64,000 bases of DNA from Escherichia coli (GCF_003018255.1 NZ_CP027440.1); one strand, 5' to 3'. Positions 57,703 to 64,000 are shown, numbered from the stretch's first letter. The notes: generated by a model from the sequence alone, not told the origin. Made by a program: numbers and translations.

Positions 57703-58968
57703 TCAGGGGTAGGTAACCTGAAAAGTGCTGGTGGCTTTAAAATCCCCCGGTTCTATAGCAATATTACCGTCTTGTTTTAATGTAGCCTGGAAATGAAGAG
57801 GTTGTGAGGTACCGTTTCCTTTATCCGGGTAAATTCCTCCGGTAGTGTCATCTTCTGTTTCGTAATCTTTATAAACAGACGTTGAATCATTTGGTTTCAG
57901 TACCATTTGTGCACTTTTAGTGTTTTTTAAACCTTCAATCAGTACACCAACACCTTTTGCTGCGTTATTTCCTGTGAGTGTGTTAGCCAGAAGTTCTTTG
58001 CTTACACTGCCCACCTTGTTTGACATAAGTTTTGTTTCTATATTGCGAACACGAATACAGTTCTGTAGCGTGATATCAAAAGGAACCGCTGTTGCGCCAT
58101 TTTTTATTTGCGCAGGGCTATAATCACCCATTTTAACCGTTGAACCACTTACCGTTGGGCCACTAAGCGCCGCAGTAAAACAGGTAGGGTTTGTTAATAC
58201 GACATCTGTCAGGTCAAAGTCGATTTTAAGAAAATAGCTGTGTTCATTGATACCAATGCCAACACCATATCCTTTGAATGAGTAGAGATAGCTATCTGTT
58301 CTGGATAATGTTACCCGTTGGTTCGTTGTCGGGTTAAAGTCGGTATCGGTATAAAATTCAATCGTGAGAGTTTGCATAACGCCACCAACGGCCCAATATT
58401 TTTTGGTGCTGTTCGCGTTGTTGCAAGACCAATATAGTGTTTGCTCGCTTTGGCCTCGCCAGTTAAAATATTGTTCTTTAGAATCGCCAATATACATGCC
58501 TGATGGGTTGATATCAGTGAGTGTCTCTGTTGACCAAATGTTTGATATTACTAATGTGTAATACAGGCCTGGGACAGATGTCTTAAAGAGTTTATGCCCA
58601 CCATAACTTTTACCGGAATCAACCATTTTATTTTCAATACTCATTGGCGTGCCGCTTGCGTTACCACTTCTGTTACAGTAAAGAAAGCCGCCACCTGAAG
58701 CGGAATCTAACTGCGTCCATTTTAATGACACCCCGGTTGGGCCAAGTTGGGTTGGTTTATAAAAAACTAAATTATTGGTGCCTGAACCATACCGGAATTT
58801 GACGGTGACATCTCCATTGGGGCCTGTTTCTTTCCATTTTTGGTCTGATGGACCAACACCGGCATTATTCCCAACAACATAGCTGACGTTATTAGCTGCA
58901 CCAACACTTGCTGTATAACAACAAGAGCACAGTGCTAAAAAAAGAAAGTATCTGAAGAATATCTTCAT
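57703..58968 (-). CDS. yadC: Fimbrial tip adhesin-like protein YadC
   Basis: Start taken at [24 protein letters not shown] (signal peptide); last gene of the yad chaperone-usher operon. Confidence 0.85.
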
Positions 58969-59017
58969 TTTTACTCCATTGTCATGCTGCAAGATAATGC
59001 TTGCAGCACTTTGTCTG

Positions 59018-59590
59018 TTATTCGTAGTAAATATCCACTAACACATGGCTTATAAGTTGGCCAGAGGTGACATTCAGCGCTGGATCGATTTTTTGCATTC
59101 GAGTGCTAAATTTCCAGGATGAATTGTTTAGTGCTGATGACATGACCGGATAAACGGAACGTGAGCTACCAGTTACGCCAGGAACGTTGAAGGTATTTGC
59201 CGGGTCCTGAATAGAGAATATAACTACCCCAACATTTTTAGCCCCGGTGTTGTCTTCATTGGCGAATATTTGACTGGAACCTGTCGCCATTACGCCACTG
59301 AGTGCGCGAAAATCAATATGTAACTGATTTAACACATTCCCTGTGCCCTGAAGTGTGCAGTCCTGTACTGTAATAGTGAACTCTTTTCCACCGGGGTGAT
59401 AATTTTCGGCTGAAATGTTTCCGGTAAAATCGCCCACGCCAACGACACCTAAATCAATATTTCCGTTGTTGCTGATTCCACTTTGGCAGGTGTTATTTTT
59501 TATATTTGCAACAATGTCAACATCCTGTCCTGCAACCACAGGGAAAGTGGTGCTGAATAGCAAAGACAGAAGCAGAATTGATTTTTTCAT
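59018..59590 (-). CDS. yadK: Fimbrial subunit YadK
   Basis: Start taken at [21 protein letters not shown]; fimbrial-type C-terminus. Confidence 0.85.
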
Positions 59591-63450: not shown

Positions 63451-63484
63451 GTTCTGCTTCCTGCTGTGGTATATCCTTGCCAGA

Positions 63485-64000
63485 TTAAAGGTTGGCGTTG
63501 CCTTCAATAGAGCCGCCAAAATCATTAATGGCGAAAAAATGCACTTTTGCAGAGCTTGTTCTGCCACTCATCCCATTTACCTTGATGACGTCGTTACTGA
63601 ACGGCGCAATCATTTTCACATCCAGGGGATAGCGTTTGCCGTTGGCTTCTAAATCACCACTGCTAAAAGAGACATAGTAGGGCGTAGGGTTATCAACGCG
63701 TAATGCCGCTTTGCCTTCAGATGTTGCCCAGGACCACTTCAGAGCCAATGGCGCATCAGATGGAATTCCACTCAATCCTTCCGGGCGATAGAACAGTTTT
63801 ATACGTGTACGAAATGCCAGTTGTAGCAGGCTTTGATTTGCTGCTTTTGCTGCATCGGGTTTTGGTGGAACTTCCAGTACGTTAAACCAGAACACACTTT
63901 CTCTGTCTTTTGGCAGAGCACTACTGGCGGTGTACATCAGTTTGATTGTTTGGCCACGTTTAGCATCAATACGTGATACTGGTGGCGTAGCGGTAAAGGG
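63485..64000 (-). CDS. yadV: Periplasmic fimbrial chaperone YadV/EcpD (PapD family), N-terminal part beyond window end
   Basis: C-terminal 150 aa visible; placed by synteny upstream of usher htrE; gene expected to extend past nt 64000. Confidence 0.85.
   Translation of the reverse strand, partial: PFTATPPVSRIDAKRGQTIKLMYTASSALPKDRESVFWFNVLEVPPKPDAAKAANQSLLQLAFRTRIKLFYRPEGLSGIPSDAPLALKWSWATSEGKAALRVDNPTPYYVSFSSGDLEANGKRYPLDVKMIAPFSNDVIKVNGMSGRTSSAKVHFFAINDFGGSIEGNANL

Follow-up and report, generated by a model that had tools for sequence, protein, structure and literature searches.

A CFT073-type Yad fimbrial operon of probable mosaic structure between panB and folK in Escherichia coli

Introduction

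Wurpel et al. (2013) described Yad as a core-associated chaperone-usher locus of Escherichia coli, intact in 94% of their strains, and as the equivalent of Salmonella Sta at an identical locus, therefore ancestral (PMC3559732). The K-12 yad operon is cryptic under laboratory conditions, according to literature cited in that study and in a 2026 PLoS Pathogens paper (PMC13245861). The latter analysed 911 yad operons and distinguished two Yad subtypes in phylogroup B2, EC958-like and CFT073-like. It also reported that the lectin domain is less conserved, that recombination has occurred between phylogroups, and that nucleotide conservation of the Yad adhesin ranges from 45 to 100% (PMC13245861). 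Li et al. (2019) reported annexin A2 as a receptor of CFT073 YadC and found this adhesin to be inhibited also by D-xylose, which had first been described as a ligand of K-12 YadC (PMC6921372). In our alignments the K-12 and CFT073 YadC proteins are 63% identical.

The operon, the adhesin role, the core position and the existence of allelic subtypes are thus already published, and the exact proteins encoded in the present sequence are in RefSeq. Here we describe the distal 6.3 kb of a Yad operon at the end of a 64,000-nucleotide stretch of E. coli DNA (hereafter the window). At a probability of roughly 0.88, we read it as part of an intact CFT073-type mosaic Yad chaperone-usher operon at the usual site between folK and panB. 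The analysis adds an operon-wide view of the allele family, a candidate CFT073-type scaffold in which the lectin domain and yadM would be replacements, and a hairpin of conserved structure beside the panB promoter.

Locus organization

The backbone of the window is ordinary E. coli: positions 30000-53900 share 97.5-98% identity with the majority of 5426 complete genomes and at least 99% with 82 of them. The 6.3 kb between panB and the window end form the distal part of the Yad operon, with six genes on the minus strand (57703-64000) whose frames are all open by ORF analysis. The first-pass annotation had named an htrE usher gene, a partial yadV chaperone gene and the subunit genes yadC, yadK, yadL and yadM, all of them open, and the ORF, Pfam and NCBIfam results confirm this. 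The four pilin-like genes it counted are indeed distinct paralogues, at 21-28% pairwise identity. The genes are as follows.

56797-57591, minus strand: panB, directly downstream of yadC, then panC on the same strand
57703-58968, minus strand: yadC, 421 aa from the annotated ATG, with GGAG ahead of the ATG; stop codon at 57703-57705
59018-59614, minus strand: yadK, 198 aa, minor pilin-like subunit
59641-60249, minus strand: yadL, 202 aa, minor pilin-like subunit; alternative ATG at 60255
60261-60833, minus strand: yadM, 190 aa, minor pilin-like subunit
60850-63450, minus strand: htrE, 866 aa, GTG start, outer-membrane usher
63485-64000, minus strand: yadV (ecpD), periplasmic chaperone; the window ends within the gene and contains its 3' 516 nt (171 C-terminal codons out of 246)

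Mechanical ORF calling extends two of these genes, with the longest yadC frame opening at a TTG at 58992 and the htrE frame reaching 63567. The window stops short of the gene for the major subunit (yadN), the first 75 yadV codons and the operon promoter. The operon at 57703-64000 is 100% identical to that of E. coli 200164, a stool isolate from Mali, in which RefSeq annotates the same genes and continues past the window with yadV, a yadN-type major subunit gene and folK. The full 246-aa yadV, yadN and folK were seen in this strain (L001 below), whose identity to the window is 99.5% over 12.3 kb by BLAST, with one indel upstream of the operon. The layout of panB, yadC through yadN, and folK is common to K-12, CFT073 and O157:H7 Sakai, with the gene order yadN-yadV-htrE-yadM-yadL-yadK-yadC.

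Operon G+C is 41-47%, against 50-57% in the flanks, and neither the ORFs nor the RefSeq annotation include mobile-element genes inside the cassette. Such a low G+C agrees with the silencing that has been reported for yad. Judged from its sequence, this would be an ordinary, functional-looking Yad operon.

Protein families and predicted structure

The family assignments lie far above chance level. HtrE matches the three usher families in Pfam (PapC_N PF13954, E 9e-44; Usher PF00577, E 4e-160; PapC_C PF13953, E 5e-17) and scores 1695 bits on NCBIfam NF007337, for which the cut-off is 830. The YadV fragment in the window contains PapD_C and part of PapD_N (profile positions 52-125), and this partial protein still reaches 315 bits on NF007398 (cut-off 285; profile positions 76-246). 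YadL is recognized by NF011797 (412.7 bits, cut-off 206) and by Pfam Fimbrial (E 1e-9). YadK is recognized by the 'fimbrial-like protein' equivalog NF011794 (300.9 bits, cut-off 132), with no Pfam match at E<=0.01. YadM matches Pfam Fimbrial PF00419 (E 8e-18) and passes no NCBIfam equivalog, its best score being 156.5 bits on StaD (cut-off 228). NCBIfam holds separate equivalog models for subtypes of YadC and YadL, and the window proteins score highest on the non-K-12 models.

YadK, YadL and YadM, together with YadN in L001, have a signal peptide and, ahead of the conserved cysteine, an N-terminal extension with alternating hydrophobic residues. All four carry a penultimate tyrosine at the C-terminus, as read from the sequences; YadK has its cysteine pair at 43/86 and ends in ...YYE.

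YadC has no N-terminal donor-strand extension and begins instead with a domain of about 230 residues. It scores 845 bits on NF007267, 'fimbrial-like adhesin' (cut-off 391), and its match to Pfam Fimbrial PF00419 is confined to residues 260-420. Its predicted parts are listed below.

58900-58968, minus strand: signal peptide, approximately residues 1-23
58201-58899, minus strand: predicted lectin domain, approximately residues 24-256
57706-58200, minus strand: predicted pilin domain, residues 257-421

An AF2 model built from a 31-sequence alignment (pLDDT 84) is beta-rich in both halves. Its top full-length Foldseek matches are FimH, CupB6, PapG and FocH, and its C-terminal half matches the FimA/F/G pilins at TM 0.63-0.79. 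The fold assignment rests on this model because a sequence search of solved structures returned no relative of YadC at E<=1. On the model, YadC would be a two-domain fimbrial tip adhesin resembling FimH and PapG.

By the established chaperone-usher pathway, the subunits would be exported by Sec, captured by the YadV chaperone through donor-strand complementation and polymerised by the HtrE usher, with YadC first, then YadK/YadL/YadM as minor or adaptor subunits and then the YadN rod. For YadK, YadL and YadM, the proposed order follows that of the genes, with fim and pap as models. Contact with a receptor would be made by the N-terminal lectin domain of YadC.

Divergence from K-12 and affiliation with the CFT073 type

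The flanks of the operon are 91-99% identical in nucleotides to a K-12 derivative through panD, the rpn gene, panC and most of panB. From 57500 (the end of panB) onward, identity to K-12 falls to 50-88% per 200-nt window, about 78% for the operon overall, and in L001 it returns to 94-99% inside folK/pcnB. The folK product is 89% identical to that of K-12 in amino acids, with dS 0.32, so that divergence is raised beside the operon as well. Amino acid identities to the two reference strains are as follows.

YadN: 86% to K-12; 98.0% to CFT073
YadV: about 86% (86.2%) to K-12; 98.8% to CFT073
HtrE: about 87% (87.5%) to K-12; 99.5% to CFT073
YadM: 76-78% to K-12; 82.9% to CFT073
YadL: 68% to K-12; 94.6% to CFT073
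YadK: 77% to K-12; 96.5% to CFT073
YadC: 60-62% to K-12 (lectin domain 50%, pilin domain 74.5%); 83.8% to CFT073 (lectin domain 74%, pilin domain 96.4%)
PanB and PanC: 98% to K-12
PanD and PcnB: 100% to K-12

The alignment of YadC that the first-pass annotation had proposed as a check shows that it is not the K-12 allele. The earlier description of YadC as one of the more variable fimbrial adhesins agrees with the published range of nucleotide conservation (45-100%; PMC13245861).

Synonymous divergence from K-12 is 0.8-1.6 in every operon gene (1.5 in htrE, 0.8 in yadV), where values above 1 are near saturation and indicate only that the divergence is old; panC, panB and pcnB show 0.11-0.28. 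Because dS is this high in all operon genes, the divergence is old and includes the assembly machinery, and is not merely fast adhesin evolution. The dN/dS ratio against K-12 is 0.04-0.22 across the operon genes, highest in yadC (0.22, and 0.29 against CFT073). Taken together, these values indicate old lineages maintained by purifying selection and not in decay, and the whole operon, not yadC alone, is of a different allele family from that of K-12. A decaying pseudogene cluster was rejected on the open frames and the low dN/dS.

By sequence, the operon belongs to the CFT073-type allele family, and YadC groups with the CFT073 protein in a neighbour-joining tree. In E. coli the locus exists in three or more deeply divergent versions, among them the K-12, CFT073 and O157 Sakai types. 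Sliding nucleotide identity to CFT073 varies along the operon in blocks.

57703 to approximately 58100, pilin part of yadC: 97-99%
approximately 58100-58968, lectin part of yadC: 69-89%
yadK: 95-99%
yadL: 90-93%
yadM: 75-87%
htrE and yadV: mostly 97-100%

Identity to CFT073 changes in sharp steps at the boundary between the lectin and pilin parts of yadC and at the borders of yadM, and dS against CFT073 is 0.91 in yadM and 0.36 in yadC, compared with 0.046 in htrE and 0.043 in yadV. The putative recombination blocks are defined by pairwise identity profiles against this single reference, and steps at domain and gene borders are what recombinational module exchange would be expected to produce. 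We infer that the lectin part of yadC and all of yadM are probably modules from other allele classes that have been substituted within a CFT073-type scaffold. In such an exchange the assembly machinery and subunit-subunit interfaces would be retained, and exposed or receptor-binding parts would be swapped.

Distribution

This version is uncommon among 5426 complete genomes: the whole 6.3 kb is matched at 99% or more in 4, at 95-99% in 257, at 90-95% in 299, at 80-90% in 124 and at 60-80% in 3398, with no megablast match in 1344. For yadC in the same genomes, identity is at least 99% in 3, 95-99% in 15, 90-95% in 312, 80-90% in 338, Nissle among them, and 60-80% in 3642. The yadM sequences form discrete classes, being at least 95% identical in 184 of the 5426, 80-90% identical in only 5 and at most 80% identical in the others.

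The exact YadC protein is RefSeq WP_123009805.1 (UniProt A0A5N3D8P0) and has been recorded on 369 public contigs; identical copies of YadM and of YadL are each present on at least 1000. The allele is therefore not strain-specific: the protein is shared, and the divergence is operon-wide, of the CFT073 type, and not a feature of yadC alone. The idea that this YadC carries a 'strain-specific binding specificity' is speculation. Sequence divergence alone does not prove a different specificity, because D-xylose is reported to block both the K-12 and the CFT073 adhesin in spite of the distance between them.

Stem-loops and other non-coding features

Two stem-loops were found in the operon.

57666-57696, minus strand: stem-loop right after the yadC stop codon, 13-bp stem, dG about -23 kcal/mol, z -5.3
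58984-59009, minus strand: stem-loop in the yadK-yadC spacer, 10-bp stem, dG -16.3 kcal/mol, z -3.3

A hairpin stands at the same place after yadC in the K-12, CFT073 and Sakai alleles, with a different sequence in each. It was identified by inspection and folding of the spacer, has no U-run behind it and was not reported by a simple terminator scan; it is likely to form the operon's 3' end or a terminator. On the panB side, the divergent cassette ends at this hairpin, next to the panB promoter. The stem-loop in the spacer, also picked up as an inverted repeat, lies just upstream of the yadC ribosome-binding site; it is present with one mismatch in CFT073 and absent from K-12. A scan of 53000-64000 against Rfam matched no known RNA family, and the promoter and terminator consensus scan gave counts near the shuffled expectation.

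Alternative explanations

The pattern might be explained by the adhesin alone, if yadC in an otherwise K-12-like operon had been driven by positive selection to a specificity peculiar to the strain. YadC is the most divergent protein with respect to K-12, its gene has the highest dN/dS of the operon, and its lectin domain diverges more than its pilin domain, all as such selection would have it. However, synonymous divergence approaches saturation in each gene of the operon, those for usher and chaperone included, every dN/dS is well under 1, the latter two proteins are nearly identical to their counterparts in CFT073 and not to those in K-12, and a YadC found on 369 contigs is not strain-specific. 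The synonymous saturation across the operon led us to reject this explanation, which we regard as the most improbable of those considered. Nearly as improbable is a silent relic, an operon intact by chance or recently inactivated and now without function. Although the crypticity of Yad reported for laboratory-grown K-12 (cited in PMC3559732 and PMC13245861) and an AT-rich composition resembling that of an H-NS target would suit a relic, six frames remain open over 6.3 kb at dN/dS of 0.04-0.29, and CFT073-type Yad is reportedly induced by serum and contributes to colonisation (PMC13245861, PMC6921372).

Recent horizontal import from another species, either of the operon or of the yadC lectin and yadM modules, is unlikely, if less so than the two preceding explanations. 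An operon with 78% nucleotide identity to K-12 within a 97-98% backbone, its low G+C and the raised divergence of folK are what an import would leave, and the E. fergusonii YadC nests within the E. coli YadC diversity in the neighbour-joining tree. Yet all source-named relatives of YadC with more than 65% identity are assigned to E. coli; the nearest from another species is that of E. fergusonii at only 63%, followed by other Escherichia at 57-60% and Salmonella at 45%. The locus occupies the ancestral position common with Salmonella Sta (PMC3559732), and the cassette is free of mobile-element genes. Peptide patterns from HtrE, run against a single genome for each species, turned up no foreign carrier, albeit in a search that was nearly blind and uninformative on other species: only 2 loci came back, one in the K-12-type E. 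coli representative and one on a MAG contig with 100% identity across the 661 residues of HtrE that it covers.

Our preferred reading remains that of an intact mosaic operon of the CFT073 type. Beyond it, we raise only tentatively the possibility that yad is a long-lived modular polymorphism, in which operon families at least as old as the splits between Escherichia species coexist in E. coli, lectin and yadM cassettes move on a fixed usher and chaperone scaffold, and the lectin module found here (at least 95% nucleotide identity in 18 of the 5426 genomes) has a receptor unlike that of K-12 or CFT073.

The depth of the allele families has a practical consequence, since screens for 'Yad' by an identity threshold miss or merge them. 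An 80% threshold on HtrE, for example, scores O157-type strains as Yad-negative despite a homologous operon at the same site.

Comparison with known systems

The closest described system is the Yad operon of CFT073 (C_RS00780-C_RS00810), which has the same site and gene order as the window operon and, upstream of panC, the same rpn-like gene and duplicated fragment. It differs in yadN and the promoter region, which are 83-94% identical in nucleotides. Since its lectin domain is 74% identical and its YadM 82.9% identical to those described here, the annexin A2 and D-xylose findings are not simply transferable, and it would be unsafe to extend ligand data for K-12 or CFT073 YadC to the present lectin-domain variant.

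The K-12 operon (yadN-yadV/ecpD-htrE-yadMLKC) shares the locus, the seven-gene architecture and the protein families. Conservation between the two extends to the panB promoter region, and in both operons yadC is followed by a hairpin. It differs in being of another allele family, the operons having about 78% nucleotide identity. The O157:H7 Sakai operon (ECs_0139-0145) likewise occupies the panB-folK interval, and its genes agree with those of the window operon in number and order. Its proteins are far more distant from those of the window, at 20-29% identity for YadC, 42% for YadK, 38% for YadL, 49% for YadM, 59.5% for HtrE and 59.8% for YadV, so that the Sakai YadC is further from the window YadC than is Salmonella StaG (43-45%).

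Salmonella Sta (staA-G) is the homologue of Yad at this locus, and the next-best NCBIfam matches of YadM and YadL are StaD and StaE. It belongs to another genus and is much more divergent, with a YadC homologue at 43-45% when compared at the protein level. Type 1 fimbriae (FimH/FimG/FimF/FimA with FimC/FimD) share with Yad the assembly pathway and the two-domain plan of the tip adhesin, and FimH heads the structural matches of the YadC model; sequence identity is only 10-23%, and the lectin domain of YadC is the larger, at about 230 residues compared with about 160.

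Stem-loops around yadC and the edge of the divergent segment

Two stem-loops bracket the tip adhesin gene yadC, and the downstream one lies close to the point at which the divergence between Yad allele families stops:

57666-57696, - strand, stem-loop right behind the yadC stop codon, folding with a 13-bp stem
57654-57627, promoter-like site of panB, with an extended -10 TG
58984-59009, - strand, stem-loop between yadK and yadC with a 10-bp stem, immediately upstream of the yadC ribosome-binding site

The stem-loop behind yadC has a folding energy of about -23 kcal/mol (z -5.3) and no U-run behind it. 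A hairpin occurs at the equivalent position after yadC in the K-12, CFT073 and Sakai alleles, each time with a different sequence, and thus it is the structure that is conserved and not the sequence. Divergence stops shortly downstream of this hairpin, where the panB promoter-like site is conserved. The stem-loop in the yadK-yadC spacer (-16.3 kcal/mol, z -3.3) has a single mismatch in CFT073 and is missing from K-12; it is a candidate element that might tune translation or stoichiometry of the adhesin. In another genome (NZ_OW967003.1, 2194073-2196680), the final 73 nt of yadC were found approximately 1.3 kb away from the remainder of the gene, an arrangement which suggests disruption by an insertion.

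Flanking genes

Two further features were compared with reference strains, the second being visible in L001, the strain 200164 locus that continues past the window end:

54585-55838, Rpn-family gene (rpnC/yadD-like) and downstream duplicate
L001 13584-14063, folK, adjoining the yad operon past the window end

In L001, the folK product has only 89% amino acid identity to K-12 (dS 0.32), the neighbouring pcnB is 100% identical, and folK is 99.4% identical to CFT073. This flank appears to travel along with the yad allele family. Nucleotide identity to K-12 also falls to 64-86% across sfsA and thpR (L001 17100-18298, likewise past the window end), which may represent a further divergent segment in this lineage. 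The rpn-like gene encodes 310 amino acids with a QEVR repeat run, and its last ~88 nt are duplicated downstream (approximately 55740-55827 versus 55425-55512, 91% identical) inside a ~240-nt segment that K-12 lacks; RefSeq labels it as a frameshifted transposase pseudogene. The gene and its duplicate are arranged in CFT073 as in the window.

Minor subunits

YadM (60261-60833) and YadK (59018-59614) are poorly covered by present models. In the NCBIfam search YadM reached no equivalog cut-off: its top match, Salmonella StaD, scored 156.5 bits where 228 are required. The Pfam search found no Fimbrial match to YadK at E<=0.01.

Comparison with O157:H7 Sakai

The equivalent chromosomal site in Sakai also carries an operon:

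L004 (Sakai yad site) 9329-16293, yad-site operon

An HtrE threshold of 80% has been applied in screening for Yad (PMC13245861), under which Sakai-like strains are called Yad-negative despite the homologous operon at this site. The Sakai usher is just 59.5% identical to HtrE of the window, and Sakai YadC, with 20-29% identity, is further from the window YadC than is the Salmonella homologue.
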